Source: a virus
DNA length: 64,000 nt
Virus record (IMG/VR): IMGVR_UViG_3300010274_000002
Reading direction: 5' to 3' (one strand)
The notes beneath the pieces were generated by a model. The model searched no databases, was not told where the DNA came from, and worked only from the letters and a program-made list of their open reading frames with translations. Numbering within the stretch: position 1 is the stretch's first letter; every line of letters begins with the position of its first letter. This document shows, piece after piece, positions 10,718 through 57,616 of the stretch. Position numbers and translations under genes: made by a program.

Positions 10718-10959
10718 AAATCAACCGGATCGACCTGTTGGAAGTCAGCCATGTCACCATCAGGTGCCGGAAGTGCGGTTGCGGTTTAATCCTCGACGTG
10801 GAACAGGCTGGCTCTGTCGCGAGGCGTTGCCCTTCGTGCGGCGCCGATTTCGGGAGTAATGCGGAAGAGTGTTTCCGTCGGCTACAGGACGCCCATTTCG
10901 CCGCCAAGGCTGCCGGTGACAAGTTCAAGATCGAGTTCGATACTGAAGAGAATGGTTGA
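10705..10959 (+). CDS. small Zn-ribbon protein, paralog 2
   Basis: CRKC...CPSC pairs; shares MK.NRI.LLE, CPSCGADF, AEECF.RL, KF..EFD with paralog 1. Confidence 0.7.
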   Translation: MVSMKINRIDLLEVSHVTIRCRKCGCGLILDVEQAGSVARRCPSCGADFGSNAEECFRRLQDAHFAAKAAGDKFKIEFDTEENG

Positions 10960-10986
10960 AGAAGATAGCTGAGTTCAAGTCATCTT

Positions 10987-11015
10987 GCCGTCCTGGGAGA
11001 CCGGGGCGGCTTTTT
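10987..11015 (+). terminator. intrinsic terminator
   Basis: GCCGTCCTGG-GAGA-CCGGGGCGGC stem with GNRA loop followed by TTTTT. Confidence 0.75.
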
Positions 11016-11049
11016 CGTGCGCGGAAATCGCGTTACGGGGTTGAGGGCC

Positions 11050-14000: not shown

Positions 14001-14919
14001 CCGGCTCGTGTCGCTTCCGCCGGACGACAACCTCCAGGTGGCCCCGAAGCTGGCGCAGCCGAAGGGGTGGCTCACGTTCGAGGGAGTGTCGGAGCCGGGC
14101 GAGGTGGGCGCGACCACCGGCAAGTACGCGCGCTTCGACATCGCGGACTCTGGGACGTACGAGGCGGGCGTGTGGCGCGAACATGCCGTGGAGTACTTCT
14201 TCCACGGCAAGAAGCTCAAGGGAAGGCTCCTCGTGCAGTACGCGCCGCTCGGCGGCCGCAGGGTGTGGATCATAGACCGGCCGGAAGACCAGAAGCCGTA
14301 CGCCGAAAGCCACGGCCTTGGGGATGTGGTGCAGGAACTAAAAGAGAAGGGCCAAAAGTGGCTTTGGTGGAAGAAGCCTGGCGAGAAGCCCCGATTGATA
14401 GATGTCGGGGCTTTCGAGTTTAGGAAGGCCTCCGCCCGCAGAACCGTCCCGATCGCCAAGGTGGACGCGGCGAGGCAGATAGTCTACGGCATCGTGCTGG
14501 ACCCTTACATCGTGGACTCCCAGGGCGACTGGGTGCCGGTGCTCGAGGTCGAGAAGGCCGCGCACAGGTACTTGGTGAAGTCGCGCACCATAGGAGACCA
14601 GCACCAGAAGAAAGCCGACGCCGAGCTCGTCGAAAGCTGGCTCGTGCCCTACCCTACGCCCGAGGACTATCGGAAAGCGATAGCCGGGGAGCCGCACAAA
14701 GTGTATCGGCTCAAGTTCGGGGAAAGCGAGGTGCACTCGGGCGCGTGGGTCGTAGGCATCCACGTCATCTCAAAGCGGTTGTGGCAGGAGGTTCAGTCGG
14801 GCGCGAAGACGGGTCTCAGCATCGGCGCGGTAGGCGAGCGGACGCGCAACGTGACGCAGGCTTTGCCGGAATTCGAGGTGGTCGAGCCCGAGGAGACGCC
14901 CGTGTTCACGGCTGGGTAG
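11050..14919 (+). CDS. multidomain fusion: nucleotidyltransferase-like, ATP-dependent DNA ligase, Dam-like adenine methylase, LigD phosphoesterase-like, XkdF-like prohead protease
   Basis: GSVVQKG...GDVDLVIR; SPKVDGFR, EGELQ, FLYDLLY, EGVV; EPYAGGASLFW and YIDPPW; RFVLHEH...HSDLRLE; IAKVDAARQIVYGIVLDPYIVDSQGD. GTG 11050 has an RBS; ORF track starts at 11017. Confidence 0.85.
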   Translation: MRITDITAEALAETNDKELLSLHRRCHQLAGSLFATARERAEDDDEGKVTWEDLVNAHALIAAEMEAREMNHDVRDRLDRESARVEKGAVSLEYLKARLAEAQDVVVVENFISIAGSVVQKGERAGDVDLVIRQDRRDTSLEILTRKVFDPEKQGYLHWVYQASGPHADYIPAFDLVLRPKKEFKVHTVKAGLKPITRYTPSKPAMMGFTEFFSADELWEKWASKQGVPLYVSPKVDGFRCIMQKAGDRVSIYFEDSKEERSDRLPSLKNALLDAPDCIIEGELQAAKDRKFLARPQVFSMLAGQLEAQPYVFLYDLLYVEPEGDVHEKPFSERYELLKSLGKKLGERFVVLPQLLVKGEGEFKRAAKEMVSWQPFRGAGLAIEGVVARRSDMAYTFAATDDYAKFKTWCELKVKVLKVEKTANGYVYECALRDDETGEDVVLGKTFVSKEKLASEGDTLNVMVEELLLYPDGKVAWGKPYPMGPDRSRPAYTVSQAIDIARRGKVLKELQQASKEESAGEVVERRVKDAYLRKLTAGGFKPGADYTLHEIGSTERGYLYRVDDGYGEWYLLAAPERVHFIAVKMADVQAFSAGRLLKGVLTKERVKELGWSTDAWDRALLKWFGGNTAAGAAQGDADAVAKALSKPFSSPGGKDAWVKLLLAKIPVHKVYVEPYAGGASLFWAKEPSEKEVLSDIDPDVVAVYKFLQSASDDDFEWMRKQKWEWSPSHFKLLKESEPRSLRERAYRYKHLNLFSVRGDGEVLYTTDRARGLTGQAFLRNLEKYRDRLRNVTILQRDALAVMKTYDSPDTFFYIDPPWKPVGTGKEWHDFDETTFVEAVLALKGKVLISYQGTLPLADWHKKSYTRAGGGIAANSKQTLYWNYDERKATANKAAAAPADEGETRGERAEKFWKENWHKLYPKSGKGRFVLHEHWRGLSEDEVNLPREELIRRGHSLHSDLRLESDGVLHGWTVFLGKAEDNATNRLVSLPPDDNLQVAPKLAQPKGWLTFEGVSEPGEVGATTGKYARFDIADSGTYEAGVWREHAVEYFFHGKKLKGRLLVQYAPLGGRRVWIIDRPEDQKPYAESHGLGDVVQELKEKGQKWLWWKKPGEKPRLIDVGAFEFRKASARRTVPIAKVDAARQIVYGIVLDPYIVDSQGDWVPVLEVEKAAHRYLVKSRTIGDQHQKKADAELVESWLVPYPTPEDYRKAIAGEPHKVYRLKFGESEVHSGAWVVGIHVISKRLWQEVQSGAKTGLSIGAVGERTRNVTQALPEFEVVEPEETPVFTAG

Positions 14920-36175: not shown

Positions 36176-38935
36176 GTGAACCGTCAGAACTACTACTACA
36201 GGCAGAAGGTCACGGAAGCGGACCTCGACAACCTCGAGACCAACCTCGAAAGCGCGCTCAAGAACAGCATCGTGGACCTCTTCGGAGTCGGCATGGTCGC
36301 GGGCGGCGAGGTGCTTCCGAATTCTCCGACGCCCGACATGTCGGTTGTTGTGACCGCGGGGCGGGGATACGACTTCCTGGGGCAGAGGGTAGCGTGGTCC
36401 ACCTCGCAGAACGTGGACTGCTCCAAGGACAAAGACGGCGTTTCGACCGCTGTTGCCACGAGCGGCAACCAGAAGTGGATAACCATCCTGGCGTACTTCG
36501 CGCGTGCGCTCTCTGACCCCAGGATAGACGGCTACGGGAATGTCGTGTACTTCCGTCAGGACGAGTCGTTCACTTTCAAGGTGATTCAAGGCGCGGAAGC
36601 TCCCGCGGGACAGGCACAGAGACCCGCTCACCCGACGGACGGAGGTCTCATCCTCGCCGACGTGCTGCTCTCGTACGGGACCACGGCGATCACTGCCGAC
36701 ATGATCGACACAAGCCGCTACGAGGGCATCGTGACCCACACCGCCGACGAGATCCAGGTAGTTGACGCGGGCAACCGGTTCGCTGGCAGCCACGTCGAGG
36801 CGGTGCTGGCTGAAATCGACCAGTCGCTGGACAATCACACCGCGCTTACCACCACCGCTCACGGAGGCATCGTGCCCGCAAGCGACGTGGTGACGACGGC
36901 GCAGGCCAACAAGATCCTGCGTCTCAACAGCCAGGCGAAGTTTCCCGCGAGTATCACGGGCGACGCAGATACCGTGGACAGCAAGCACGCGAGCGACTTC
37001 GCCCCAGCGTCTCACGTGGGGGCCACGGGAACGGCTCATGGGACCGCAACGACGTCGGTCGCTGGATTCATGTCGGCTGCGGACAAGGCGAAATTGGATG
37101 GTATCGCCGCCGGGGCCGAAGTGAACCAGAACGCCTTCAGTCAGATAAAGGTCGGTGCCACGACAATAGACGCCGATTCAAAGACCGACTCCGTGGAGTT
37201 CGTGGCGGGGACCGGGATTGCGCTTACGCCGGACTCGACGAACGACAAGGTGACGTTCGCGGTCGCGATGAGCGACGACCTCCATGGCAATCGCGGCGGC
37301 GGCAGCCTGCACGCGGCGGCGACCTCTTCTGCCGCCGGGTTTATGTCGGCATCGGACAAGGCGAAACTGGACGGCATTGCCGCCGGGGCCGAGGTCAACC
37401 AGAACGCTTTCTCTTCGGTCAAGGTCGTGGACGCCGCCGGTACATCCAAGGGTCAGGCCGACGCGGACGCGAAGACGGACGTGCTCACGCTGAAGGAGGG
37501 CAGCAATGTCACGCTGACGGTAGACACGGCTACCGACACAGTGACCATCTCAGCAGCCGGCGGAGCGCACGCGTCTACGCACATCACCGGCGGCTCGGAC
37601 GTCATCCCCAACGCTGTGGCGAACGGGGCTTCGGGCCTCATGAGCGGCGCTGACAAGGCAAAGCTTGACGGTATCCAGGCGGGCGCGGAGGTCAACCAAA
37701 ACGCGTTTACAAGCGTTGCTGTGGTGGACTCGTCCGGGAACGCAAAGACCGGGAGTCCTTGCGTCGCCGACTCGAAGACGGACACTCTCACGCTCAAGGA
37801 AGGCCAAGGCATCACCCTGACGCCCGACTCAGCCACGGACACGGTGACTATCGCCGTCACGAGCGTCGCGCCGACCGCGCACGCTTCCACGCACATTACT
37901 GGCGGTTCGGACGTCATCCCGAATGCGGTCGCCGGTGGCGCTTCGGGCCTCATGTCCGGCGCTGACAAGGCCAAGCTGGACGGCATTCAGGCGGGCGCGG
38001 AGGTTAATCAGAACGCCTTCAGTCAGATAAAGGTTGGTTCTACGACGATAGATGCCGACTCCAAGACTGACGTTCTCGAGTTTGTGGCCGGTACCAACAT
38101 AGCGCTGACACCCGACGCCACCAACGACAAGATTACGATTGCAGTCACGGGCACCGTGTCCCAGGCTACAAATGCGGACACCGTGGACAATCTCCACGCG
38201 AGCGACTTCGCTCCAGCGTCTCACGTGGGGGCGACCGGGACGGCTCACGGCACGGCCACAACCTCGGTCGCTGGATTCATGTCGGCGTCAGACAAAGCAA
38301 AGCTAGACGGGATACAGGCGGGCGCGGAGGTCAACCAGAACGCCTTCGCACAAGTCAAGGTAGGGGCGACAACCATAGATGCGGATTCCAAGTCCGATGT
38401 TCTGGAATTGGTGGCTGGGACGAACATCGCGATCACGGCAGATGCGGGGAGCGATTCTGTAACGATTGCAGGCACGGGAATTTGGCCCAACGCGGACAAA
38501 GTGGACGGCTGTGATGCCGGTACTGGGGCGAACAACGTTCTCAAGCTGGACAGCTCGGGCAAGGTGCCTGTGGGCAACTTGCCACCTATAAGAAAGCTCT
38601 ATTACGGCGATGAGACAGAGTGTAGCGTCACCGGGACGACAGAAACCTCCATCAAGACTCTGCGCGTCGTCAATTGCTCGACCGCAGGTTTGAGTGTAAC
38701 CAAGTTGTACTTCGTTGCTACGCTCAAGGTCAGTGGCGGCACCGGTTATCTAAAGGTGTACGTCGATGGCACGTTGGTCGCGACGCTCCAAACCACGAGC
38801 ACGAGCTACGCGGTCGTTTACGGCTCTGCTGCCGTGTCCTGGTCGGACAACACGGTTCACACCGTCGACGCGCGCATATCGAACTCGGGTTCGTACACCA
38901 CGTACAACCAGGTCTTCGAAGTCTACGTGGAGTGA
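36176..38935 (+). CDS. tail fibre protein 2 with tandem repeats
   Basis: N-terminus MNRQNYYYRQKVTEADLD; five copies of DKAKLDGIxAGAEVNQNAF. Confidence 0.88.
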   Translation: MNRQNYYYRQKVTEADLDNLETNLESALKNSIVDLFGVGMVAGGEVLPNSPTPDMSVVVTAGRGYDFLGQRVAWSTSQNVDCSKDKDGVSTAVATSGNQKWITILAYFARALSDPRIDGYGNVVYFRQDESFTFKVIQGAEAPAGQAQRPAHPTDGGLILADVLLSYGTTAITADMIDTSRYEGIVTHTADEIQVVDAGNRFAGSHVEAVLAEIDQSLDNHTALTTTAHGGIVPASDVVTTAQANKILRLNSQAKFPASITGDADTVDSKHASDFAPASHVGATGTAHGTATTSVAGFMSAADKAKLDGIAAGAEVNQNAFSQIKVGATTIDADSKTDSVEFVAGTGIALTPDSTNDKVTFAVAMSDDLHGNRGGGSLHAAATSSAAGFMSASDKAKLDGIAAGAEVNQNAFSSVKVVDAAGTSKGQADADAKTDVLTLKEGSNVTLTVDTATDTVTISAAGGAHASTHITGGSDVIPNAVANGASGLMSGADKAKLDGIQAGAEVNQNAFTSVAVVDSSGNAKTGSPCVADSKTDTLTLKEGQGITLTPDSATDTVTIAVTSVAPTAHASTHITGGSDVIPNAVAGGASGLMSGADKAKLDGIQAGAEVNQNAFSQIKVGSTTIDADSKTDVLEFVAGTNIALTPDATNDKITIAVTGTVSQATNADTVDNLHASDFAPASHVGATGTAHGTATTSVAGFMSASDKAKLDGIQAGAEVNQNAFAQVKVGATTIDADSKSDVLELVAGTNIAITADAGSDSVTIAGTGIWPNADKVDGCDAGTGANNVLKLDSSGKVPVGNLPPIRKLYYGDETECSVTGTTETSIKTLRVVNCSTAGLSVTKLYFVATLKVSGGTGYLKVYVDGTLVATLQTTSTSYAVVYGSAAVSWSDNTVHTVDARISNSGSYTTYNQVFEVYVE
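37007..38470 (+). repeat. modular coding repeats of tail fibre 2
   Basis: ASHVGATGTAHGTATTSVAGFMS x2, HASTHITGGSDVIPNAVA x2, AGAEVNQNAF x5; one further copy in fibre 1 (~30130-30400). Confidence 0.85.
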
Positions 38936-38946
38936 GGTGATTCGTC

Positions 38947-39198
38947 ATGCCTATAGGCCGCATTGGGGCGGTCAGAACCAAAAGCATCAGGGACGTCGAG
39001 TGCGCGGCTTGCGAGACGTGCAATACCTGCTATAGGTGTGACACTTGCCAGGTGCAGATGACCTGCGCTAGATGTGACAGTTGCCAAGAGTGCAATACAA
39101 GCGAGAAAACCTGCTCTACCTGTCAGGCTTGCTATTCTTGCGCTTCCTGCAACAAGTGTCAAGCCTGCGTGTCGTGCCAGGCGCTACTTAATCCTTGA
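38947..39198 (+). CDS. Cys-rich CxxC-repeat peptide A (83 aa, 18 Cys)
   Basis: GAGGTG RBS; Cys at every third residue in blocks of 6/4/8. Confidence 0.85.
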   Translation: MPIGRIGAVRTKSIRDVECAACETCNTCYRCDTCQVQMTCARCDSCQECNTSEKTCSTCQACYSCASCNKCQACVSCQALLNP

Positions 39199-39211
39199 GG
39201 GGGCGGGCGCA

Positions 39212-39433
39212 ATGGGACTCCTGGTCAGGACGTGTCGTGCCTGCCAAGCGTGCGATACTTGCCAAGTGTGCGCCACGTGCGACTCGTGTAACACGGCGCA
39301 GGACTGCACCTCGTGCGACACATGTTACTCATGTGAGGTCTCATACGACGTGTGCGGCGTCTGCGCCGAGTGCCAAAGCTGCGTCGAGTGTATGAGATGC
39401 GTTGAGTGTCAGGTTTGTACAAATCCGTACTGA
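39212..39433 (+). CDS. Cys-rich CxxC-repeat peptide B (73 aa, 19 Cys)
   Basis: GAGGGGG RBS and ATG 39212 inside ORF-track 39074-39433; Cys blocks of 7/4/8. Confidence 0.85.
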   Translation: MGLLVRTCRACQACDTCQVCATCDSCNTAQDCTSCDTCYSCEVSYDVCGVCAECQSCVECMRCVECQVCTNPY

Positions 39434-39450
39434 CGATGGAGGGTAAATTC

Positions 39451-40569
39451 ATGCAACACGCTACGTGGTTCGTAACATCGCGCTGCAACTTGGCCTGCCG
39501 GTATTGCTTCACAAGGTTCAATCCGGACTTTCCTGCCCAGGATTCCACTCTTGAGGTGGGGAAGGCCGTTGTTGACCTTGTGCTGGCAAGCTCCACGATG
39601 CCGCAAGTCGGCATTTCTTTCTTTGGCGGTGAACCGCTGCTGAGGTTCGATTTGATGCGCGAGGTCGTCGAATATGCGGAAACACAGGCGGCGAAGGCAC
39701 GCAAGACTTTCGGTTTCTCTGTCACCACCAACGGTGTGCTGCTTGACGACGAGGCAATCCGCTGGCTGAAGCAGAAAAAGGTGAATCTGCTTCTGAGCAC
39801 GGACGGCATGCCTCACGAATTCAACCAGCGCGTATTCCCGGACGGCAGACCGAGCGCTCCACTAGTTCTTGAGCATGCTCTCAGCGTCCTGGAGGCCGGA
39901 TTGCAGCCCGTTTTGCGCTGGAGCTTGCATCCCGAGCACTTGTCATACCTGGCGACCGACCTGAAAGCGCTCGTGCGGCAGGGCTTTGACATCATCGCCG
40001 TTGATCCGGTGTATGAGGCGCCATGGACCGAACGCGACCTCGCACTCTACGAGGAACAACTTCGTGAGGTGGGCAGGTTCTACGTGTCGTGCCTGCGCCG
40101 AGGCCGTAGAGTCACAGTCAAGCCGATAGACGATGGTTTCGCCATGTTCACGATGGATGATAAACAGAAGACCCGGTGCGGAACGGCAATGCATGGCGTC
40201 GGCGTCGGAACTGACGGCAAGATATACCCGTGCCATCGCTACGTGACCCGTATGGAACCAGTCATCGGTGATGTGTTCAGCGGGTGGGACGAGACTGCGC
40301 TCGCGAAGGTGCAGGCGTGGGACGTGCGCAAAGCCCAGCCCGCATCGGGCGAATCATGCGCGGATTGCCCGGTGAATCTCCGGTGTCATGGCGGAGCATG
40401 CCTCTGTGTCAACCTGGACATGTGCGGGGACATCTATACTGTGCCGGACATCTACTGCAAGTTGCAGCGTATCAACCAGCGTGTGGCGAATGACGTGGTA
40501 TTCGTCCTGCACGCCGAGAAGAACCCGATACTTATGGAGAAGTTGAAGCACCCGGATCTGAGGACTTGA
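39451..40569 (+). CDS. radical SAM/SPASM-domain protein
   Basis: CNLACRYC (CX3CX2C), FFGGEPLL, TTNGVLL; SPASM cysteines RCG...IYPCHR...CADC...CHGGACLC...YC; GGAGGG RBS favours ATG 39451 (alternative 39436). Confidence 0.93.
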   Translation: MQHATWFVTSRCNLACRYCFTRFNPDFPAQDSTLEVGKAVVDLVLASSTMPQVGISFFGGEPLLRFDLMREVVEYAETQAAKARKTFGFSVTTNGVLLDDEAIRWLKQKKVNLLLSTDGMPHEFNQRVFPDGRPSAPLVLEHALSVLEAGLQPVLRWSLHPEHLSYLATDLKALVRQGFDIIAVDPVYEAPWTERDLALYEEQLREVGRFYVSCLRRGRRVTVKPIDDGFAMFTMDDKQKTRCGTAMHGVGVGTDGKIYPCHRYVTRMEPVIGDVFSGWDETALAKVQAWDVRKAQPASGESCADCPVNLRCHGGACLCVNLDMCGDIYTVPDIYCKLQRINQRVANDVVFVLHAEKNPILMEKLKHPDLRT

Positions 40570-40685: not shown

Positions 40686-40946
40686 ATGCCGACCGGACTT
40701 GCTGACTATGGCGTAGCGATCTTCTCAATCGGAATCGTCGCGTGGATGGTCATCAGTGTATTCGCGCCACGGCGAAAGGACCCCGACCTTTCGCGGATCA
40801 TCAGCGACAACACAAGGGCTTTGACAGAGCTTTCCGCTCTCATCGAGCAGCAGGGGCAGATGATTCAGGCGCAAGGCCAGGCATTGCGGGAACTCGCGAA
40901 TCTGTTCAACGAGCTCAGGTTGGAGGTGGCAAGAAAAGTGGGGTGA
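40686..40946 (+). CDS. holin-like / BhlA-XhlA-like membrane protein
   Basis: One N-terminal TM segment plus coiled coil; stop overlaps the endolysin start. Confidence 0.55.
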   Translation: MPTGLADYGVAIFSIGIVAWMVISVFAPRRKDPDLSRIISDNTRALTELSALIEQQGQMIQAQGQALRELANLFNELRLEVARKVG

Positions 40947-41488
40947 TTGCCTCCAGGACGGTCGTGATCGATTCGGGTCATGGTGGACGTGACCCGGGGG
41001 CCATCGGGCCGAGCGGGTTGAGAGAGGCCGATGTCACCCTGGAGTTGGGCCTGCTGGTCAAGTCCCGCCTTGAGAAGCGGGGCATCTCTGTCGTGTTGAC
41101 ACGGACGGAAGACGCCGACGTCAGCCTTGCGCGCCGGTGCGAGGTTGCGAACCGGTCCGGCGCGGCAGTGTTCGTCTCGCTGCACTGCAACGCGGCGGTC
41201 AACACGGAGGCTCACGGGACCGAGACGTATCATCTCGAGGGCTCCTCGGCGGGCCGGGTTCTGGCGACGCAGATTCACCGGAGGCTTGTCGCGTTGGGTT
41301 TGCGGGACCGCGGGGTACGGACGGCAGGCTACTACGTTTTGAAGCACACGAGGATGCCGGCTGCGCTCGTCGAGGTGGCGTTCATCACGCACCCGGCCGA
41401 AGAGGCGAAACTTGCATCGGCGGGTTTCCAGAACGCAGCGGCTGAGGCCATAGCCGAAGGCATACGCGCTTACTTGGAGGAGGGATGA
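40943..41488 (+). CDS. endolysin, N-acetylmuramoyl-L-alanine amidase (Amidase_3), catalytic domain only
   Basis: VVIDSGHGGRDPGA, E...FVSLHCNA, LVEVAFIT. Confidence 0.95.
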   Translation: MIASRTVVIDSGHGGRDPGAIGPSGLREADVTLELGLLVKSRLEKRGISVVLTRTEDADVSLARRCEVANRSGAAVFVSLHCNAAVNTEAHGTETYHLEGSSAGRVLATQIHRRLVALGLRDRGVRTAGYYVLKHTRMPAALVEVAFITHPAEEAKLASAGFQNAAAEAIAEGIRAYLEEG

Positions 41489-41491
41489 GTC

Positions 41492-41773
41492 GTGAGCTTC
41501 GACCTCGGCCCGGAACACATGGCGGTGGTATTGCTCATTGTTCTAGCAGTCGGGCGACTGAAACGGTGGATTGGCAAGGACTACGCGCCGTTCGTGGCGT
41601 TGGTGCTGGGTTGGCTCGGAGCGGTGCCGCTCATCATCTGGGAGGAGAGGGCGGCGCCGAGTTGGGGTGTGTTTTTGTCCGGAATGTTTATCGAGGGGAC
41701 GATGCTCGGTCTCGTAGCCATGGGCAGTTATGATACTTTGATTAAGAAGACAGGTCTGGGGAAGTGGTTGTGA
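41492..41773 (+). CDS. holin
   Basis: 93 aa with 2-3 TM helices; GLVAMGSYD C-terminal motif; follows the endolysin. Confidence 0.7.
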   Translation: MSFDLGPEHMAVVLLIVLAVGRLKRWIGKDYAPFVALVLGWLGAVPLIIWEERAAPSWGVFLSGMFIEGTMLGLVAMGSYDTLIKKTGLGKWL

Positions 41774-42519
41774 TGCTCAAGAGGCTGTCGGAGTTCATCC
41801 GTCGCAATTGGGCGGCATTCCTGGCCGCGCTGTTGGCCCTGGCGGGGGCGTTCCGACTCGTTCAGGGACAGAAGGTCAAGCGGCTCGTTAAAGGGGCGTC
41901 TGAAGCCAAATCCAAGGCCGACTCCCTTCGAATTGACGCGGCGGTGGAGGCCGAGAGACAGGCGGCCCGCCTGAGGGAGCAGGAGGCTCGGATGAGAGAG
42001 GGGGAGAGCAACAAGGACCGTGCCGACCGACTCAACGAGCGGCTCAATCAGCTCAAGAAGAAGCATGGCTTGTTGCTGCTGGTTATCGGAGTCCTGCTTC
42101 TTGCCCTCGGGGCCGGTCCGGTGAAGGCGTCCGACGAGGCGGCGTTGCCCAGCGACTACGCGGCCTTGGCGAAATTGTACTTCCAGGCGCTGGACCGGAT
42201 AGCGGAGCTAAAGGCGGACCTTGAGGAGGCTATCAGTATCGCCGACGAGTACAAGCAGCTCTATGAGGACGAGCGGCGGTTACGTCTACAGGCGGAGGCG
42301 GCTGTCACGGAGGCCGAGGCTGCGGTCAGTCGGGCCTTGGAGAGGGAGAAAGAGCTGCAGGAGGTCATCGCGAAGCAACACGAGACAATCTTGCAGCTCG
42401 CGTCGGTGAAGCGGTCGCCCATAGCACTTACGGCAGGTGTCAGTGCCCGGGTAGCGGTGAGACCCGAGGGATTAGCGTTGGAGCCAGTAGTCGCAGTGGG
42501 AGTGGAGTACAGGCCCTGA
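41773..42519 (+). CDS. membrane-anchored coiled-coil protein, spanin-like
   Basis: N-terminal TM, coiled coil, second hydrophobic helix, coiled coil, C-terminal alternating beta-strand segment; last gene of the lysis cassette. Confidence 0.5.
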   Translation: MLKRLSEFIRRNWAAFLAALLALAGAFRLVQGQKVKRLVKGASEAKSKADSLRIDAAVEAERQAARLREQEARMREGESNKDRADRLNERLNQLKKKHGLLLLVIGVLLLALGAGPVKASDEAALPSDYAALAKLYFQALDRIAELKADLEEAISIADEYKQLYEDERRLRLQAEAAVTEAEAAVSRALEREKELQEVIAKQHETILQLASVKRSPIALTAGVSARVAVRPEGLALEPVVAVGVEYRP

Positions 42520-42665
42520 GCTGCTCTCCGACAGTATAGGTTTGTTTAATCCGGCACGAACCTATTAAGCGATATGCGCGGCGCGCGTAATTAAGCGATC
42601 CGCGCATATATATGGACGGCTCCAAACCGCCCGCGTGCCTCTGCCAAATCGGCTGCCCATATCTG

Positions 42666-42701
42666 AGCCCGGTTCCCTTCGGGGGCCGGGCTTTTTCTTT
42701 T
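42666..42701 (+). terminator. intrinsic terminator ending the late operon
   Basis: AGCCCGGTTCCC-TTCG-GGGGCCGGGCT with UUCG loop followed by a T-run. Confidence 0.88.
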
Positions 42702-45039: not shown

Positions 45040-46287
45040 TCATTTATCCGACAGCCCGAGAGCGCGCCGGAGGTCATTCAGCATTTCCCTTTCTCCCGAC
45101 GGGATCGCGTGGGCGTAAATCCTCAGTGTCGTCCCGACGTCGCTATGCCCAAGCCGCGCGGCCACGTAGTGAACCGGCACGCGCGCCTTCAGGAGCAAGG
45201 TCGCGCAGGTGTGGCGTAGCCCGTGAAACTTGATTGGGCGCACTCCGGCTCTCTTTATGATCCGCAGGAATTCCCTCTCGCCAAGGTTATTGGCTTGCAA
45301 GGGTCGCCCGATCACACCCTGTCGGCGGAATTTGTCGGGCTCCTTCGCAAACACGAGGCCGAAGTCATTGTATGCCGCGCCCACACGGAGTTTGATTTCG
45401 GCTTGGTGCTTGCGGTGCGCCCTGAGCAAGTTCAGCGTTTCCGGGGCGACCATAATCGTGCGCGGCCGTCGGTTCTTGACAGGCCCGAATATAGGTTCTT
45501 TCGAGGCGCGCACGAGCGAGCGCTCGATGCGGATCGTGCCGGTTTCCCAATCGATGTCTTTCCATTGCAACGCACAGAGTTCGCCTTTTCTCATTCCGGA
45601 ATCAAGAGCGAGGGCGAAGAACGCCGCCCACTGCGGCCCGGCCTCTCTCGCCGCTGCGAGGAACCTCGCTGCTTCCTCGGCTTCCCAGCAGTTTTCAAGA
45701 ACGTCCGCAGGCGAGTCCTCGCGACTTCTGGCGGGTTTGCCCATCATGTTTGAGGCCACGTTTTCCCGCACAAGGCGCTCCATTACGGCCGCGTCCAGTG
45801 CCGAATGGAGCACCATGTAGTGGAGTTCAAGCGTCGTCATGCTTTGGGTCTTGCCCAACTTATCGAAATAACGACGCAGGTGAGTAGTGCGGAGGTGTTG
45901 GATGGGGACTTCGCCGAGTTCGGGTATGAGGTGCAAGCGTATGATGCTTTCATAGCGGCTAGCAGTCGTCCCCGATTTCTTGGCCGTCTTGAGGATAGTC
46001 TCTCTGGGGTCTCCGATTGCGCATCCGTATTCGGCTCGAAACCACTCTCGAAGCCACTCTCCAAGGGTCATGTCATCAGGCGCGACGTAGCTTTCATCGT
46101 CAAGCTCTCTCTGCAGCTGGCGCAGCACTCTCTTGGCTTCGGTCAGGGAGCCATAAACGACTCGCGATGGTCGGATGCGTCGGCCGTCAGCATCGAAACC
46201 GGCAGAGGCCCGGACCAGGAATTTGTTGTCGTCGACTTGTATGATCTGGCCGTCGCCCCAGCGGGCGCGGGTCTTCTTGCGTGCCAT
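45040..46287 (-). CDS. int: tyrosine recombinase (integrase)
   Basis: SGMRKGEL, FHGLRHT, LGHSD...TLRIYAH catalytic R-H-R-H-Y set; GGAGG RBS before ATG 46287. Confidence 0.96.
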   Translation of the reverse strand: MARKKTRARWGDGQIIQVDDNKFLVRASAGFDADGRRIRPSRVVYGSLTEAKRVLRQLQRELDDESYVAPDDMTLGEWLREWFRAEYGCAIGDPRETILKTAKKSGTTASRYESIIRLHLIPELGEVPIQHLRTTHLRRYFDKLGKTQSMTTLELHYMVLHSALDAAVMERLVRENVASNMMGKPARSREDSPADVLENCWEAEEAARFLAAAREAGPQWAAFFALALDSGMRKGELCALQWKDIDWETGTIRIERSLVRASKEPIFGPVKNRRPRTIMVAPETLNLLRAHRKHQAEIKLRVGAAYNDFGLVFAKEPDKFRRQGVIGRPLQANNLGEREFLRIIKRAGVRPIKFHGLRHTCATLLLKARVPVHYVAARLGHSDVGTTLRIYAHAIPSGEREMLNDLRRALGLSDK

Positions 46288-46445
46288 GTGTGTCACCTCC
46301 AACGGAGGAAGGGTCCAGGATGTCAGATGAACCATGTGTGCGGCTCTGCACCCATTCAACGAATCTCGGTTATTCCCTTTTGTTCATCCTGTCTCGCCAG
46401 CAACGTTCGAAGATGTTGTCGTTGACAGCCTGTCTCCTCCCATTG

Positions 46446-47837
46446 CTACTCAACTGTCCGCAGAGCCTCTCTGTCCAATTCGGTCGAGGGGCTAGGACGA
46501 TAGTGCTCAAGCAATGAGCGGAACGTTCCACTCAGCTGGCATTCGTGCAGCTTTTGTGGTTCCCTATGAAGGCATTCCAAGACATGTATGAACTCGTTCC
46601 TTTCTGCCTCGGAAAGGCTCCGGAAAAGACTCCTCCAGCGTTTAGCTTCCATTTCATAGCGCCTTCTGTAGATAATGTAATCATCCGGCATACACAAGAT
46701 TTCTACAAAGTCTTCGTATGTCTTGCCAAAAGCTGTTTCAAAGAACTCCCTTTTGGGACTAACCAACCCGCGTGTGGCGTTGAGCACACACTGGATTCCG
46801 CGAAGGTATCGCCAACTCCACGCAGGACCAATATAGTGCCTGTCCACACTGGTGATAGGTATATACCTCATAGGAAATCCCGTAATCCTCACACCATACT
46901 GCTCGGATAGCTCGATATTCAGGCGCATGCGATGATAGAAGCTTTCAGGTGTGTCGTCAAAGTTATACATTATGTAGGTTGTGAACTCCTGAAACCCTTC
47001 TCTGGCCAGAAGCTCGATGGCATTTCGGTAGTAGGGTTCCATGGCATCAAAATCGAGCGCAAGCCTAACCGGTGAGAGGGCTATCGATGAAAGCAATCGT
47101 GCGGTGTTTTCATTGACAAGACGTGCATCAATTCCCTGAGTGAAGTCTACAACCCTTAGCCTGTTATTCCTTTTGGCTCCCCTACCAAAACCTAGGTCGA
47201 CTATCTCTGCAACGATTTGGTCAACATTATCCGCAGCCAATACGTTATTGTCCAACAGGATTAGATGCTGTTTTTCTCCGTATCTTTCAGCTATAGCCTT
47301 CACCTGATCATGGAGGCTCAAGAAGCGCTTGAATTCAGGCTCAAGCCGTGGGACAGCACAAAATGAGCACCGCCGTATACACCCCAACGTAGCACGGCAG
47401 AAGTAACTGTCTTGATGGTGGTAACTGTGGCCAGTACCTTCCAAAATGCCATAATCAGGAACCAAATAGGCAATCGGCAACGATTCATCGTCGATCATAT
47501 TTGCCCTTATTAACTGACCCTGTACGATTCGACAATCCACGCGTTGGCGAACATACTCGGGGTGCAGAGTTACACCAATTCCCCCGACTATCAAGTGCTC
47601 GGGTTTCTCCACTGACTGCCTGTAGTACTTCAAGGTCTTGACAGTACGCGGCAACTCGTAAGTGAATAGAGAGGATACATATACCCTGTTCCAGATAACG
47701 CTACGAAGTGGACGATTCAGCCCACGCACGAACGTGACGGCATCGCCACGCTCTTTGTAATACGTCGCTATACGCATTAATCCAAGGGGCGGGAACTTCG
47801 AGTCATAATCTGGTTCAACAAGCAAAATGTTTGCCAC
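46446..47837 (-). CDS. radical SAM protein with B12-binding-like N-terminal domain
   Basis: ILLVEPDYDSKFPPLGLMRIA; RATLGCIRRCSFCAVP (CX3CX2C); LLDNNVLA. Confidence 0.82.
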   Translation of the reverse strand: MANILLVEPDYDSKFPPLGLMRIATYYKERGDAVTFVRGLNRPLRSVIWNRVYVSSLFTYELPRTVKTLKYYRQSVEKPEHLIVGGIGVTLHPEYVRQRVDCRIVQGQLIRANMIDDESLPIAYLVPDYGILEGTGHSYHHQDSYFCRATLGCIRRCSFCAVPRLEPEFKRFLSLHDQVKAIAERYGEKQHLILLDNNVLAADNVDQIVAEIVDLGFGRGAKRNNRLRVVDFTQGIDARLVNENTARLLSSIALSPVRLALDFDAMEPYYRNAIELLAREGFQEFTTYIMYNFDDTPESFYHRMRLNIELSEQYGVRITGFPMRYIPITSVDRHYIGPAWSWRYLRGIQCVLNATRGLVSPKREFFETAFGKTYEDFVEILCMPDDYIIYRRRYEMEAKRWRSLFRSLSEAERNEFIHVLECLHREPQKLHECQLSGTFRSLLEHYRPSPSTELDREALRTVE

Positions 47838-49394
47838 CTATGGTCGGTCCTTTCCCAAGCCATACTTACGTAAGATTGCAGTCTTGGCAAGTCTGTAGTG
47901 TTCCTCGTCAAGGACATCTCTCAATGTAGCTAGAATGTCTTGGATAAGCTTGCGCTGTGTGCGGTCTAGGGATGATTTTAGCTTCCGTACAACAAGTTCC
48001 CCTGCCTGTTCAACCTCCTTAGCAGTCTTATCTAGCAGTGCTATTGTGCGCTGCAGCTCTTTCTGCTCCGTTTCATTTCTATCTGAACTCAAGGCTAGCT
48101 TTGTCTTGTCAATCTCCTTTTGAATGCGGTCCAAAAGCTCTTCTTTGTGCTCTTTGGAAGTAAACCCCGTTTGAATTGTGTCTTCGGCCTCCCGCATAAC
48201 TTGTTGGGCGGCTTTGACAATCTTTGGTACGGGCCTATTTCGTGCCTGGGATGCGGTCCTGATGTCGCTGGATCTTTCTCGCAGAAACCAGATTAGCTGC
48301 TGCCGAATGCTAGACCACTCTTGGTTCGCTTCAAAGCCATCCCTCCGTGCATTCGGGATAGCAGCCTCAGAAAGCACATGTATCTCTCCTATGTAATAAC
48401 CGTTGAACCGTTCGTTGCTGCCAGCTATCTCACGAAACAGTTCTGCTACGCGTTCAGGACCACCTATTGCGATATTGTGTTTTCTGAACCTGAAACCCGC
48501 CGCTTCTTCCTCTCGAATTGTTCCCAGTAGGTTACTCTTTCCGTACCACAACCAAAAATGGGACTGAGGCCCTGCGTTCTCGGGATAGAACACGACATCC
48601 TCTATTTCGATCTCGTAGTTGTTTCGAATCGTGTGGTAGTGACCTTTGTATGGCTTGAATACCTGGCGCTGGAAGTCGGGACCTTTGATAACCAAGTTCA
48701 CACATGGGAGGTACAGACCATGCTTCACGGTCCATTCGGTGATTTTTGGTGCGAATATGAATCGCTGGGCATCAAACCCAACAGGAGCCACCTGGCTGAG
48801 GTAAAACTCCAATTCATGCCAAGAAAGAAAGAGATCGGCAACGCTCATGTCGATATCGTTCATCTGCGCTTCGAAATAGTGGTCCGACTCAGATGCTGTC
48901 TCGCTTTTTATAAGGGTGTTATGGTCAATCACTTCCGACAACTCTTTGGCTTCCACGTTTCTTCGTGTAGGAGAGATTTGGCGGCGTATACCCTCACAAT
49001 CCCAACTCACCACGGATGCCTTAGTCTCTCCTGAAAAAGAAGTGATAAAACTGAGGTTACGACAATACGCGACGCCAGCAATACGTCCTATGCCCCGAAA
49101 TCCAGCATCGCTTCCCAACTGCTTCGCAGACATCCCAATGTTTATCAGCCTCTCTCGCACAAGGTCGCTCGGAACTCCTTCACCGTTATCCCTTATCGAA
49201 AGTCGGCGGTTCTTGGGGTCAACGAAAATCTCTATTTTGCCCTCACCGGGAGCCAGTAAGCCTTTGGCTTCCGCTCTGCGGATGGAGTCTGCGGAGTTTT
49301 GTACAAACTCACGGAGTGTGTCAAGCGGCTGAGCGTACATTCCAGTTGTGAGAGTCTCCAGAACGAAGGCACCTATTTTGGCCAAGATACTCAC
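47838..49394 (-). CDS. GHKL (Hsp90/MORC-like) ATPase
   Basis: LREFVQNSADS, IRDNGEG, GFRGIGR GHKL motifs; GTG overlaps the herA stop (GTGA). Confidence 0.85.
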   Translation of the reverse strand: MSILAKIGAFVLETLTTGMYAQPLDTLREFVQNSADSIRRAEAKGLLAPGEGKIEIFVDPKNRRLSIRDNGEGVPSDLVRERLINIGMSAKQLGSDAGFRGIGRIAGVAYCRNLSFITSFSGETKASVVSWDCEGIRRQISPTRRNVEAKELSEVIDHNTLIKSETASESDHYFEAQMNDIDMSVADLFLSWHELEFYLSQVAPVGFDAQRFIFAPKITEWTVKHGLYLPCVNLVIKGPDFQRQVFKPYKGHYHTIRNNYEIEIEDVVFYPENAGPQSHFWLWYGKSNLLGTIREEEAAGFRFRKHNIAIGGPERVAELFREIAGSNERFNGYYIGEIHVLSEAAIPNARRDGFEANQEWSSIRQQLIWFLRERSSDIRTASQARNRPVPKIVKAAQQVMREAEDTIQTGFTSKEHKEELLDRIQKEIDKTKLALSSDRNETEQKELQRTIALLDKTAKEVEQAGELVVRKLKSSLDRTQRKLIQDILATLRDVLDEEHYRLAKTAILRKYGLGKDRP

Positions 49395-51031
49395 CTCGTT
49401 ATTGCTGCCTTGGGCTGGTAATAGCACGGGTGTGGAAAACGTACCTTAACCAGTTCAGTCTTGAATACGGCATGCTGCAGCAGGAGCGTTCCTTGCGGCA
49501 GTCGGGAGAGCACGGATTTGTGTGTGTCTGAGAGGTGCCGAAAATCAGGACACTTACTGATCTCGATAGGCGTAGTGCGCCCATATACATTGGTGCTGCA
49601 GTTGCCAAGCACGCGTTCATGAACACCGCTCCGGAACTGCTCAGCACCAAAGAGTATCACGCCCAGAGACCGACCTCGCTCCGTTACCTCCAAGAGGCTA
49701 CGTGTGAGGCTTCTTGCGATGTCAGCGCCCTTGGGCGCGTACTTGTTCAGCTCGTCAGCAAATATGACGACTGTACCCAGTCTACTCCCGTCGACATCTT
49801 CATCATCCCCAAGTTTTGCGGCATAGATCGTCTGAATAACATCCCCAACAACCAGACACTGCAGATAATCCGGTAAGGGTTCTATGTCTATGACAAGGAC
49901 GTCACCCCGCTCTAGTTCGGCAAGAGCTTCACGGATGAGCCTGTGCCTCTTTTCTGCCTTGACGGACCGCTCGGTGAATAGGTCGTGCTCTGTTCGCGAG
50001 CGGAGAAGCCGACTAAACCTTCTCCAAGAAGCTTTGGAGATATCTCCTGCCTTTGAGCTTCCTTTAACAGTCCGTTCAGCAATCTCGTTTCTGAATGTGT
50101 CCCAACTGTCGCACTCAATATCGCCAATATCATGCATAATGCTCTCAATCGTTGCGTTCGGGTCATCAATGTCCGAGAACAGAAGCGGTAGTTTTCGCCT
50201 GGCAGTCTCCACATCGTAGAAATAGTTCATGCATCTGTTTGCCATCTGCTGTTGCGCGAGAATGGCGGGGTCGGCGTGGGAGTTCGTGTAGCCGGTTTTT
50301 TCGCGCGCGGCATACGGGTATAGGTAAGTTACGTTTTGGAACGGCTCAGGGTTTAGACCACACTTTTTCCACTCTTCCCTTTGTTCTGTCGTTAGGTCTG
50401 GATTGTCGATGTCGATGGACAACAGATCATTGCCCTTCACATTGAAAATAACCATAGTCACTCTATCCCCAAGGCATTGCTGAATGGCGTTGAGCAAAAA
50501 CATGGCGTAGGATGTCTTGGTGGCAAGCCCAGAGATTCCCGATATGTTGAGATGTGCCCCCTCCGGCCCCAGCAAATACGCGGCTTCAAATTCCACAGGG
50601 ACCTCTATTCCATTCGAATTGCGTATGTATCCAGCCGGTACAGGAGTTTTAAATGCCCGCAATCCCAGGGCCTCCCTAATGCCCTCGGCGTCCGCCCACT
50701 CCACCTGTGCACCATTCTTTACCGGCATTTCTACTTCACGAGTGTTAAACAGCACCTCAGCCTCGGCAATTGTAGTACTGATTCTCTGGTTTTGTGGCTC
50801 GACATCTACTTCGCCAAAATCAGAGGAAACGAAATTCGACAGGTGACCTGTACTGTCCGTGATGTGTAACAACTCTTGCACCATCGCGTACGTATAACTA
50901 TCTCTGATGTGTGGAATCCTCACCACATCAAAAGGGCGAAGCACCTCGCCTTCCTTCACCCAAAACCTGAGCGTGGTACACGACGTAGGCTTGTTCTCGG
51001 TCGCAGTAATCCTCCCGATTATGGAGCTCAT
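49391..51031 (-). CDS. herA: HerA-like FtsK/HerA family ATPase
   Basis: HAS-barrel-like N-terminus; variant Walker A GISGLATKTS; VIFNVKG; Walker B IFADELNKYAP; ERGRSLG. Confidence 0.8.
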   Translation of the reverse strand: MSSIIGRITATENKPTSCTTLRFWVKEGEVLRPFDVVRIPHIRDSYTYAMVQELLHITDSTGHLSNFVSSDFGEVDVEPQNQRISTTIAEAEVLFNTREVEMPVKNGAQVEWADAEGIREALGLRAFKTPVPAGYIRNSNGIEVPVEFEAAYLLGPEGAHLNISGISGLATKTSYAMFLLNAIQQCLGDRVTMVIFNVKGNDLLSIDIDNPDLTTEQREEWKKCGLNPEPFQNVTYLYPYAAREKTGYTNSHADPAILAQQQMANRCMNYFYDVETARRKLPLLFSDIDDPNATIESIMHDIGDIECDSWDTFRNEIAERTVKGSSKAGDISKASWRRFSRLLRSRTEHDLFTERSVKAEKRHRLIREALAELERGDVLVIDIEPLPDYLQCLVVGDVIQTIYAAKLGDDEDVDGSRLGTVVIFADELNKYAPKGADIARSLTRSLLEVTERGRSLGVILFGAEQFRSGVHERVLGNCSTNVYGRTTPIEISKCPDFRHLSDTHKSVLSRLPQGTLLLQHAVFKTELVKVRFPHPCYYQPKAAITR

Positions 51032-55754: not shown

Positions 55755-57107
55755 CTAGTGGAACAGGCCGAAGCTTGCCCCTAGCGCTCGCAGGCACTTC
55801 TTGGCGTCGACTGCGGCAAGGTTCACTTCCATGAAGCGGTCCCGAGCCACGTTCAGGGTAACGGCACATAGGTCCGTCATATGCCCGGTGGCCGGATCAA
55901 TGCCGCGGCGAGTCGCCTTCACCGACACATTCGATAGGCACCCGAGACAATCGGCCTGGAAAGCCACGTAAGCCGCTCTTAGAACGGATTGGCACGCAAA
56001 GTCCTCATAGAGCTTTCGAATGCCCTGTTGAGACAGCTTCTTGGGAACGATAGCTCCGGCAGCGCTGTCATACTTGTACGAGACCACGTCGGGCAGAGAC
56101 TCGGGGGCGGGCAGTCTCAGCGTCACGTCGAGCGTCCCGGAAGCCTTGTCGTACGCGATATCAGTGTCCTCCCGTGAGGACTGGGGAGCCTCCAGCTTGG
56201 AGAACACGAACTTGAAGTATTCGCGGATGGCGTCCGGTTCGCCCGCCTTAAAGGCCGCCTCGCAGTCGCGTACGCGCTGATTATGCTTGGCCTTCTTTCG
56301 CTCGAATTCCGCCTTCGCCGCAAGGTATCGTTTCCAGGCCACCGTTCGCCGGAGCGCGTGCAGCAGCAGCCGCCTTTGGTATTCGAGCTCCGCCGCTTCC
56401 TTGCGGTGCTGGAAGGAGCGGAGCTCTTCCTCAAAGACCTCCCTGGCCTTCCTCTCCGCGCTCAGTCTCCGTTCTTTCCGGGCAGGGAAAAGGCGCTCGA
56501 CGAAGCTCGGTTTGGGAACCTTCAAGCGTGCGAACGTCCCGGCAAGCGTCGGTTCGGGCTCGTCGAACGTCCGTTGAGGTCGCTTCTCGTCGAATACGAA
56601 AATCGGGTACTCGTCCTTCCGGAGCAGTGATTCCCAGTCAAGCCTGTAATCCTTGTCGAGACTTGAGGCGAGCACGGTTTTATAGGCCTCAAGTTTCCTT
56701 TGTGCCTCCTGGGTCATGCGCTCGGCGCGGGCTTTCGTTTCCGCAACCGCCTGCTTTTGTCGAAGGTTCTCCTCCCGTTCTTTCCAAGTCGCTAGCTGAG
56801 CGGTGACTTTCGCCTTCAGCTCCTCGGGGTTTCTGGCCTTAATGGTCTTGCTGACTCCGAGGTACGGATTCGAGATTGTCTGCTGGTACACCGGCGATTT
56901 TGCCCGCGGCGCTCCGAGCGAGCGCAGGCTTTGCTCGGTGCTGTAGTAGATTCCCGTCCCGGGAATGCCCACGGAAGTCCTGATTCCTCTTGGGCCGATG
57001 GACACGCGGGCGCCTTTCACGCCGGCGCTGATTCCGATGCCGCTCTTGCTGAGGTTCAGGCGCACGCCGCCTCCCAGGTTGATGCTCTTCCTCATGCGAA
57101 GGCCCAC
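55755..57107 (-). CDS. DUF4236-domain protein with Mrr-associated-like body, no recognisable nuclease domain
   Basis: RMRKSINLGGGVRLNLSKSGIGISAG...GIPGTGIYY N-terminus; GIDPATG near the C-terminus. Confidence 0.7.
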   Translation of the reverse strand: MGLRMRKSINLGGGVRLNLSKSGIGISAGVKGARVSIGPRGIRTSVGIPGTGIYYSTEQSLRSLGAPRAKSPVYQQTISNPYLGVSKTIKARNPEELKAKVTAQLATWKEREENLRQKQAVAETKARAERMTQEAQRKLEAYKTVLASSLDKDYRLDWESLLRKDEYPIFVFDEKRPQRTFDEPEPTLAGTFARLKVPKPSFVERLFPARKERRLSAERKAREVFEEELRSFQHRKEAAELEYQRRLLLHALRRTVAWKRYLAAKAEFERKKAKHNQRVRDCEAAFKAGEPDAIREYFKFVFSKLEAPQSSREDTDIAYDKASGTLDVTLRLPAPESLPDVVSYKYDSAAGAIVPKKLSQQGIRKLYEDFACQSVLRAAYVAFQADCLGCLSNVSVKATRRGIDPATGHMTDLCAVTLNVARDRFMEVNLAAVDAKKCLRALGASFGLFH

Positions 57108-57616
57108 AGCCGATCCTCCTCGCACCGGAATGCCAAGTGCCTCAGCGCCTTAATCTCGCGGGCGTCGCCTTGAATCAGGCTCAGGCGAAACCGAATCAGG
57201 CTCTCGTCAACATCGAAGATTTCGGCGAGCTCCCAGGGCTCGGTTCTGCCTCGTCGCACCACGTACAGAAGCGAGTCGAAGGGAATAAGATGTCTGGCGG
57301 CCCAGGACAAGGCCCTGTATTCGCTCCTGTCAAGACTCACCCGGTCGGCGTAGGAGCAACGCCTCACAGCCACACAATCACCGACCGTCGTAAAGTGATG
57401 TCCCAGTTCTTCGCCCAGGACCGTCCGCAAGTGCTTTGGGTTGTCGAACAGTGTTTTCGAGAGCCCGATTACAGGCGGTAGTTCGGGATGCTTCCAGTAC
57501 ACGCCTTCAAGCGGCGGCTCAAAGTCCCAGTACTCGAGCGCGATTCCTTCGTTATACGCAAGAGAGATGAGGTCGTGGGGCAACTGCGTTCCCTCCAGGC
57601 ATAACGGTACTGGCAC
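57092..57616 (-). CDS. ImmA/IrrE-family metallopeptidase (anti-repressor)
   Basis: LGEELGHHFT, EYRALSWAARHLIP, LAEIFDV; directly follows the XRE repressor. Confidence 0.88.
   Translation of the reverse strand: MPVPLCLEGTQLPHDLISLAYNEGIALEYWDFEPPLEGVYWKHPELPPVIGLSKTLFDNPKHLRTVLGEELGHHFTTVGDCVAVRRCSYADRVSLDRSEYRALSWAARHLIPFDSLLYVVRRGRTEPWELAEIFDVDESLIRFRLSLIQGDAREIKALRHLAFRCEEDRLWAFA

Follow-up and report, generated by a model that had tools for sequence, protein, structure and literature searches.

Radical S-adenosylmethionine (SAM) maturases carrying a SPASM domain are known from bacterial pathways for cofactors and for peptides that are made on the ribosome and modified after translation (RiPPs). 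We describe a module built around such an enzyme in a 64,000-nt stretch of viral DNA, IMG/VR virus record IMGVR_UViG_3300010274_000002 (the whole stretch is referred to as the window), where two small cysteine-rich proteins, pepA and pepB, are encoded in tandem directly upstream of a radical SAM/SPASM gene and directly after the main tail fibre gene. The phage module is genuine and conserved, has so far gone without annotation, and is of the radical SAM/SPASM and Cys-peptide kind. Two described systems, CteB/CteA (SCIFF, thermocellin) and PapB/PapA (freyrasin), provide its best sequence and fold matches and likewise set a full-SPASM radical SAM enzyme beside a Cys-rich ribosomal peptide, one with six Cys or six CX3D motifs; PapB requires acidic acceptors and docking of the leader on a RiPP recognition element (RRE) (PMC12373016). 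QhpD, also a SPASM radical SAM enzyme, makes several Cys-to-Asp/Glu thioethers in QhpC, a small Cys-rich protein that is kept as a structural subunit. The CXXX-repeat system (TIGR04115) pairs an RRE-less radical SAM/SPASM enzyme of ~360 aa, similar in this to the window enzyme, with proteins bearing short Cys repeats, and anSME, of the same size and RRE-less radical SAM plus SPASM architecture, handles a protein substrate without a leader-binding domain. A parallel of another kind comes from established knowledge of T-even phages, where the genes for T4-type gp38 adhesins and Tfa chaperones also lie directly after the fibre gene and encode small proteins in which hypervariable residues accompany a periodic motif that is conserved.

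The three genes of the module and their translation signals, the latter read from the sequence, are the following.
38934-38939, + strand: Shine-Dalgarno site of pepA, GAGGTG
38947-39198, + strand: pepA, 83 aa with 18 Cys (ATG at 38947, stop at 39196-39198; orthologues in 12 loci, alignment A3)
39197-39203, + strand: Shine-Dalgarno site of pepB, GAGGGGG
39212-39433, + strand: pepB, 73 aa with 19 Cys (ATG at 39212, stop at 39431-39433; orthologues in 11 loci, alignment A4)
39438-39443, + strand: Shine-Dalgarno site of the radical SAM gene, GGAGGG
39451-40569, + strand: radical SAM/SPASM enzyme, 372 aa, without an RRE (NCBIfam, Pfam, CteB alignment and AF2 model)
38947-40569, + strand: the trio as a whole, located after the main tail fibre and before the lysis genes

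Our recount agreed with the original prediction, made from the letters of the window, on the Cys content of the two tandem peptides, on their ribosome-binding sites and on their Cys blocks, which run 6/4/8 in pepA (spacers QVQMT and NTSEKT) and 7/4/8 in pepB (spacers NTAQD and EVSYDV). It likewise agreed on the short N-terminal leaders of 18 and seven residues, the first Cys being residue 19 of pepA and residue 8 of pepB. The pepA leader is conserved and basic, ending in IRDVEC in the window and in (N/S)-I-R-D-x-E-C across orthologues, while the pepB N-terminus, MGLLVRT, corresponds across orthologues to a short hydrophobic-I/V-R start that is also found on pepA of some lineages. In 23 orthologues of the two peptides, exactly two residues lay between one Cys and the next in 335 of 378 cases. 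The residue following each Cys was mostly Q, D, N or Y and the one preceding the next Cys mostly S or T, and the occasional spacers of 5–7 residues had a recurring shape (e.g., N-T-x-Q-x-x). At position four after a Cys, D or E occurred in 14% of the pepA C-x-x-C units and D alone in 18% of those of pepB, with Q the commonest residue (27–30%). Because of this uniform spacing, because both open reading frames (ORFs) are kept, each with its Shine-Dalgarno site, in loci of widely differing base composition, and because the pepA leader is under purifying selection (see below), the Cys periodicity is far beyond chance. Finer features were more local. The block pattern that the two peptides had been said to share is present in the window, and 6/4/8 is lost outside the closest relatives of the window phage; the terminal NP of pepA and NPY of pepB are there as described and are not conserved outside the window phage.

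Database searches with the peptides returned little. Neither pepA, pepB nor any of 10 related array proteins matched a Pfam or NCBIfam model, the sole match being a weak one to phrog_15341 (1e-5). A word-based protein search with pepA gave no candidates, and tblastn of pepA against 50,697 phage records gave no match, for which the low-complexity filter is the probable cause. The module is under-annotated because gene callers mostly skip small Cys ORFs: both peptides are uncalled in three related loci (L003, L004 and L069), pepB in two (L001 and L002), and L071 is affected in part.

The enzyme gene begins at ATG 39451, 17 nt past the pepB stop, and its product has the full SPASM set of Cys that had been ascribed to it. 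The CxxxCxxC motif at residues 10–17 (CNLACRYC) is invariant in 15 full-length homologues, and eight further Cys (243, 261, 303, 306, 312, 317, 319 and 336) are conserved, fitting the SPASM pattern as C243, C261, C303-x2-C306-x5-C312-x4-C317 (and C319) and C336 with one extra residue in the last spacer. In Pfam, Radical_SAM (PF04055, 3.3e-13) scored above its cut-off and Fer4_12 also matched; SPASM, at 16.5 bits, fell under its gathering score of 21.5, and the region nonetheless aligns to the SPASM region of CteB. The profile match to CteB (5wgg), the closest solved relative, reached 4e-51, and the AlphaFold2 (AF2) model (predicted local distance difference test score, pLDDT, 83) gave a TM score of 0.77 both to CteB and to RRE-less anSME. 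The original prediction had also noted the apparent lack of an N-terminal RRE, and no RRE was found: the protein begins nine residues before CxxxCxxC, and its alignment to CteB starts after residue 97 of the latter, at residue 98.

Ranking the enzyme against NCBIfam placed the PapB family first (1e-59), followed by a nif11-type maturase, the SCIFF maturase (8e-47), QhpD (1e-42) and the CXXX-repeat maturase (3.8e-35). Every score was far under its curated cut-off (in bits, 202.4/340 for PapB NF047865, 160/425 for SCIFF TIGR03974, 146/453 for QhpD TIGR03906 and 122/350 for CXXX TIGR04115), so by sequence the enzyme resembles thioether-forming SPASM maturases in kind and is a member of no named family. 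A protein search outlined a compact family of relatives comprising 17 clusters at 39–81% identity, followed by a sharp fall to ≤34%. A viperin-like reading was rejected, as the PADLOC pVip match spans only the generic radical SAM core (residues 5–128). The nearest non-phage relative (34% identity; L072 4926–7101, from a bacterial metagenome-assembled genome, MAG) is preceded by two acidic 175-aa proteins that have twin-arginine-like signal sequences and no Cys arrays, and so would represent a different type of substrate for a related maturase.

Set against the described systems, the locus differs from each of them. In contrast to CteB and PapB, the window enzyme has no RRE; its putative substrates carry 18–19 Cys at a strict period of three, they come as a tandem pair, and the system is phage-borne and tied to a fibre head. 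No SCIFF precursor was found beside the enzyme, the peptides matching no NCBIfam model. In QhpC four Cys are cross-linked and a periodic array is lacking, and QhpD serves the maturation of a periplasmic enzyme and not of a virus part; this pair is the best precedent for a cross-linked structural part. The Cys period is three here and four in the CXXX-repeat system, and the window targets match no NCBIfam or Pfam model. At 18–20% sequence similarity, anSME oxidises a single Cys or Ser to formylglycine and forms no cross-links. The gp38 and Tfa proteins show no sequence similarity to the peptides, and have glycine-rich motifs instead of Cys arrays and no modifying enzyme. In the general sense of the term, the peptides look like RiPPs in having a conserved leader, a variable core and a maturase that adjoins them in all loci, the modification itself being predicted; the protease and transporter that would go with export are missing from their neighbourhoods (5–6 kb in L001, L003, L004, L069 and L070). 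Our literature search found no publication on phage radical SAM/SPASM and Cys-array systems tied to tail fibres; one cyanophage paper does no more than list a radical SAM "maturase" as a gene for antibiotic synthesis (PMC12801897).

The fibre gene upstream of pepA, and the domain in which it ends, proved to be part of the same unit.
36176-38935, + strand: main tail fibre of 919 aa that contains the internal fibre repeats D1, D2 and D4 (phrog_7389 tail fibre, 1e-74)
38513-38932, + strand: head domain at the C-terminus of the fibre, a jelly roll of ~110 aa that is TNF/C1q-like (alignment A2; AF2; Foldseek)
The head domain is single-copy within the window. Its AF2 model (pLDDT 89) was matched by Foldseek to the C-terminal domain of Chlamydia Pgp3, to C1q heads and to the TNF-like lectins PLTL and BC2L-C, and a modelled TNF/C1q-like domain of this kind is what would be typical of the trimeric head of a binding fibre.

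We read the DNA around eight members of the enzyme family (L001, L003, L004, L006, L007, L069, L070 and L071). In all eight, two tandem Cys-every-third ORFs with Shine-Dalgarno sites lie directly upstream of the radical SAM gene, and in every one this head domain closes the gene preceding pepA. Outside the head the fibres differ; their full lengths are 919–925 aa in the window group, 357–360 aa in three loci (L003, L004 and L006), 275 aa in L070 and 236 aa in L071, and the baseplate modules of the carriers vary as well (Baseplate_J and Tail_P2_I; BW3TFN and DUF4815; or Mu Gp48). Searching in the opposite direction, from the head domain into viral, genome and metagenome collections, returned 19 loci; Cys peptides were found immediately downstream in 18 of them, and the radical SAM gene in 12 of the 12 with enough DNA. 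As many of the 19 loci come from one sludge lineage, the number of independent observations is about 8–9 rather than 19. The module spans at least eight divergent viral lineages, with enzyme identities of 32–81%. The joint occurrence of the peptide pair and the enzyme, which the original prediction had named as its check, thus held in every homologous locus with enough DNA.

In two hot-spring lineages the head is not the end of a fibre at all: it is a stand-alone protein of 126–127 aa, followed by two Cys peptides and a radical SAM enzyme of 32% identity. Their contigs (L077 3941–5985 and L078 4001–6212) are binned with archaeal MAGs (Candidatus Methanodesulfokora washburnensis and Thermofilales), and one hot-spring module sequence is also catalogued as viral in IMG/VR (L073); the host may be an archaeon, or the contigs may belong to a mis-binned bacterial phage. 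Taken together, these loci show a module of four parts (fibre head, pepA, pepB and radical SAM enzyme) that is co-inherited across very different viruses. The carriers come from bioreactor, manure, digester and hot-spring metagenomes, habitats that would suit an oxygen-sensitive enzyme. The lysis genes directly follow the module in most loci; in L070, the module is flanked by two fibre genes, the downstream one PF23140 Gp80, and the lysis genes are 5 kb away.

We estimated selection by pairwise Nei-Gojobori comparison within one closely related sludge lineage (14 pepA sequences). The ratio of nonsynonymous to synonymous substitution rates (dN/dS) was 2.1 in pepA codons 37–73, a value that comes from a single lineage with non-independent pairs and that unequal recombination between repeat units could inflate. 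It was 0.14 in the pepA leader plus first six Cys, reflecting purifying selection, 0.10 in the radical SAM enzyme, 0.57 in the first 40 codons of pepB and 0.69 in the fibre head domain. Since dS was alike across the compared regions (0.03–0.08) and the Cys within codons 37–73 are nearly invariant, the high ratio speaks for diversifying selection acting at the non-Cys positions of pepA. Such diversification is expected of an arms-race surface, be it a receptor-binding part or an effector.

Arrays of this type are not confined to small peptides. A pepA profile run against 1.84 billion representatives gave 141 matches, the best of them proteins of 840–1100 aa with a common N-terminal tail-tip region (phrog_8917) and, at the C-terminus, long arrays of this kind in which the spacers too are of the same type. 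In L094, the array protein is preceded by the tape measure, by a Dit-like gene and by an earlier phrog_8917 gene, with a phrog_1802 radical SAM gene 1.7 kb downstream; in L095, a radical SAM gene lies 0.6 kb downstream of the array protein. Both enzymes are 29–30% identical to that of the window. The L094 enzyme (10688–11240 region) is called as an ORF of 561 aa whose first ~185 residues hold several short C-x-x-C stretches, which suggests that uncalled genes for small Cys peptides may have been merged into the call. As judged from these sequences, Cys-every-third arrays can be permanent parts of tail proteins and accompany this enzyme family.

More distant phage radical SAM enzymes, those of phrog_1802 included, also lie near Cys-array proteins. 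Four large phage contigs that carry distant radical SAM/SPASM homologues encode 200–380-aa proteins with long terminal CNYCTCDC-type arrays (L027 9036–9722, L035 5259–6302, L045 8218–9369 and L051 2810–3424), for which Pfam has no family; their Cys are alternately one and two residues apart, and their helical N-terminal domain has a recurring H-x-x-E-L/I-R. Finally, an AT-rich family of ~100-aa proteins (P0193, P0237, P0245, P0233 and P0261) carries a C-x-x-C array and, behind it, the conserved motif Y-W-I/L-x-N-x-E-V-T-x-x-E-aromatic at the C-terminus.

The window enzyme very probably modifies pepA and pepB, and the modification is probably, with somewhat less assurance, a set of Cys-to-carbon thioethers. 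Because the enzyme has no RRE, the N-terminal motifs of pepA and pepB are likely to be the elements that it recognises. We tentatively favour, at slightly short of an even chance, a reading in which the enzyme cross-links pepA and pepB into a rigid accessory of the fibre head. Late in infection, in an anaerobic host cell, it would recognise the short conserved N-terminal motifs directly, without an RRE, in the way that anSME and QhpD deal with their protein substrates, and place many Cys-to-carbon thioether links along the C-x-x-C ladder. The product would be a compact cross-linked mini-protein resisting heat and protease. At the receptor-binding end it would join the trimeric fibre head in action, serving as a cap, an adhesin or a stabiliser. 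In pepA, the variable residues other than Cys would be exposed and would track variation of the host surface, and the peptide genes would fill the gene slot usual for tail-fibre assembly or adhesin genes of the T4 gp38 type. The reading is favoured by the four-part linkage, which holds even with a stand-alone head, by the placement of the module in L070, by the arrays fused to tail-tip proteins, and by the lack of a protease, exporter or immunity gene. The original prediction had allowed for either a virion component or a released effector; with the head linkage, the fused arrays, the L070 position and the diversifying selection on pepA, the evidence now leans, short of proof, towards a fibre-linked part.

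Several points weigh against an accessory of the fibre head. One distant head homologue, in an AT-rich phage (L085), is without the module, the sole exception among the 19 loci, and the linkage to the head could merely reflect cassette exchange of neighbouring genes. No protein with the head domain fused to a Cys array was found among the 141 array proteins, and the likeness of pepA to the tail-tip arrays seems to be one of kind rather than proven homology, the profile E-values overstating homology because the similarity is between low-complexity repeats. Structure prediction gave no help: ESM Atlas returned pepA at pLDDT 0.42, without a confident fold or a usable feature match and with meaningless structure matches, and the predicted complex of the head trimer with pepA scored 0.00 (partner pLDDT ~30), no answer either way. 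For P0139, which is related to the AT-rich family, no radical SAM gene was found within 5 kb (L097, the one informative context, the P0237 contig L096 being a mere 1,063 bases long); since such proteins exist without a nearby enzyme, Cys-every-third arrays may fold through Zn or disulfides alone. To these must be added the limits of the dN/dS value given above, and the fact that a conserved leader with a hypervariable core is also a hallmark of released RiPPs.

This last point leads to the strongest rival, in which pepA and pepB would be processed into products resembling ranthipeptides or sactipeptides. Freed by lysis, these would act outside the particle, for instance on bacterial competitors, on neighbouring host cells or as a signal. 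We regard it as unlikely. It would account well for small proteins built of conserved leader and hypervariable core, for a maturase closest to PapB and the SCIFF maturase, and for the position of the module directly before the lysis genes in most loci. It fits poorly with the neighbourhoods, in which, as the original prediction had noted for the window, no protease or transporter is adjacent in any locus read, nor does one lie within 5–6 kb in the five loci named above; none of the loci showed a gene for a leader protease, an exporter or immunity. The window enzyme is also without the RRE that leader-dependent maturases such as PapB use (PMC12373016). A freed product would give no reason for strict linkage to one fibre head domain, even where this is a stand-alone gene, for the module of L070, which has a fibre gene on either side and is 5 kb away from the lysis genes, or for arrays of the same type fused to tail-tip proteins.

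The strict linkage to the head, together with the slot directly after the fibre gene, would also suit an assembly factor: cross-linked or metal-loaded peptides could aid the folding or trimerisation of the TNF-like head, in the manner of the tail-fibre assembly chaperones whose genes lie downstream of fibre genes, without being retained in the particle. We consider this improbable, as diversifying selection on pepA is not expected of an internal chaperone, a radical SAM enzyme would be a costly route to one, and similar arrays are permanent C-terminal parts of tail-tip proteins. Distinctly improbable is a role as metal binders only, in which the arrays bind Zn or Fe-S in the manner of metallothioneins and the enzyme has its substrate elsewhere, for example in the fibre head or in a small molecule. 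C-x-x-C is the classic metal-binding knuckle, Cys-every-third proteins occur without a nearby radical SAM gene (L097), and pepA has no predicted fold on its own. Yet every relative of the enzyme has as its substrate a Cys-rich peptide or protein whose gene lies alongside, peptides and enzyme co-occur without exception in the window enzyme's family, and even the distant phrog_1802 phage enzymes lie beside Cys arrays. Variation focused in a fibre-linked gene, as in Mtd of the Bordetella phage, could also come from a diversity-generating retroelement, with the hypervariable half of pepA as the variable repeat mutagenised by a reverse transcriptase, but this is hardly credible as the cause of pepA hypervariability and was rejected for the window, where neither a template repeat of the pepA region nor, among the large ORFs scanned, a reverse transcriptase was found.

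Returning to the cross-linked fibre accessory, its extension to a wider group of viruses is a possibility that we hold with more doubt than belief: some tailed viruses of anaerobic and hot habitats may mature their receptor-binding apparatus by a radical SAM enzyme that staples two Cys-ladder mini-proteins, through numerous thioether bonds, into a hypervariable, enzyme-hardened adhesin seated on the TNF-like head of the fibre. A covalent way of hardening phage particles is already known in the autocatalytic capsid cross-links of HK97. We know of no dedicated radical enzyme that hardens tail parts, and to our knowledge the enzymatic cross-linking of a fibre accessory part is undescribed for any virus particle. 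If true, the reading would add a new post-translational chemistry to virion assembly and an undescribed class of virion component. It would also provide a new compact hypervariable scaffold of invariant Cys and free intervening residues, relevant to host range and to the engineering of stable binders, and would account for the "orphan" radical SAM genes in many phage genomes. If the peptides are released RiPPs instead, they would constitute a widespread phage RiPP family with an RRE-independent maturase, likewise unreported.

The window itself derives from the metagenome of an anaerobic bioreactor and belongs to a temperate tailed phage or prophage, with a complete late operon on the + strand from the terminase through the lysis block.
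2001-4511, + strand: large terminase
from 4514, + strand: portal
from 16094, + strand: major capsid protein
from 20001, + strand: sheath
from 22943, + strand: tape measure
from 34194, + strand: Baseplate J
from 35620, + strand: Tail_P2_I
40686-40946, + strand: first lysis gene, BhlA-type holin-like, its product having a membrane helix at the N-terminus plus a coiled coil (orthologues of L001 and L069 in alignment A5)
40742-41488, + strand: endolysin ORF, N-acetylmuramoyl-L-alanine amidase (PF01520, 3.6e-54; phrog_435)
41492-41773, + strand: Hol44-like holin
41764-42519, + strand: spanin-like ORF
42665-42693, + strand: strong intrinsic terminator closing the late operon (13-bp stem with 9 GC pairs, then a T run)
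45040-46356, - strand: integrase

This gene order agrees with the original prediction of a phage-borne module within the late operon, the trio being co-oriented between the main fibre and the lysis genes. No convincing terminator was found between fibre and lysis genes, the first strong one being that at 42665–42693. The downstream border of the peptide and radical SAM module is the BhlA-type holin-like gene, whose counterpart in L004 is PF10960 Holin_BhlA, and the true endolysin start is probably near 40940.

Other parts of the window hold several unusual genes. The large terminase (837 aa) is split by an intein (Intein_splicing and LAGLIDADG at residues 227–554) between its ATPase and nuclease halves. 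In the head module, one ORF of 1300 aa (11017–14916, + strand) joins an ATP-dependent DNA ligase, a Dam-type N6-adenine methyltransferase, a LigD 3'-phosphoesterase and an XkdF-type prohead protease, an unusual fusion that is possibly a packaged or processed polyprotein. Adjoining the integrase is an island of low GC content (46446–51028, - strand; ~50% vs 60%) with genes for another and unrelated radical SAM protein (462 aa), for a 528-aa HATPase_c_3 protein of MORC-like type and for a protein weakly similar to HerA; PADLOC matched no system in it, and it may be defence or accessory cargo. A protein with an N-terminal DUF4236 (55755–57122, - strand) is similar to type IV methyl-directed restriction enzymes (PADLOC mREase_IV, 4e-16). 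Upstream of the terminase (27–1607, + strand), a ParB-like nuclease domain is fused to a DNA methyltransferase (phrog_498, 8e-102; phrog_620).

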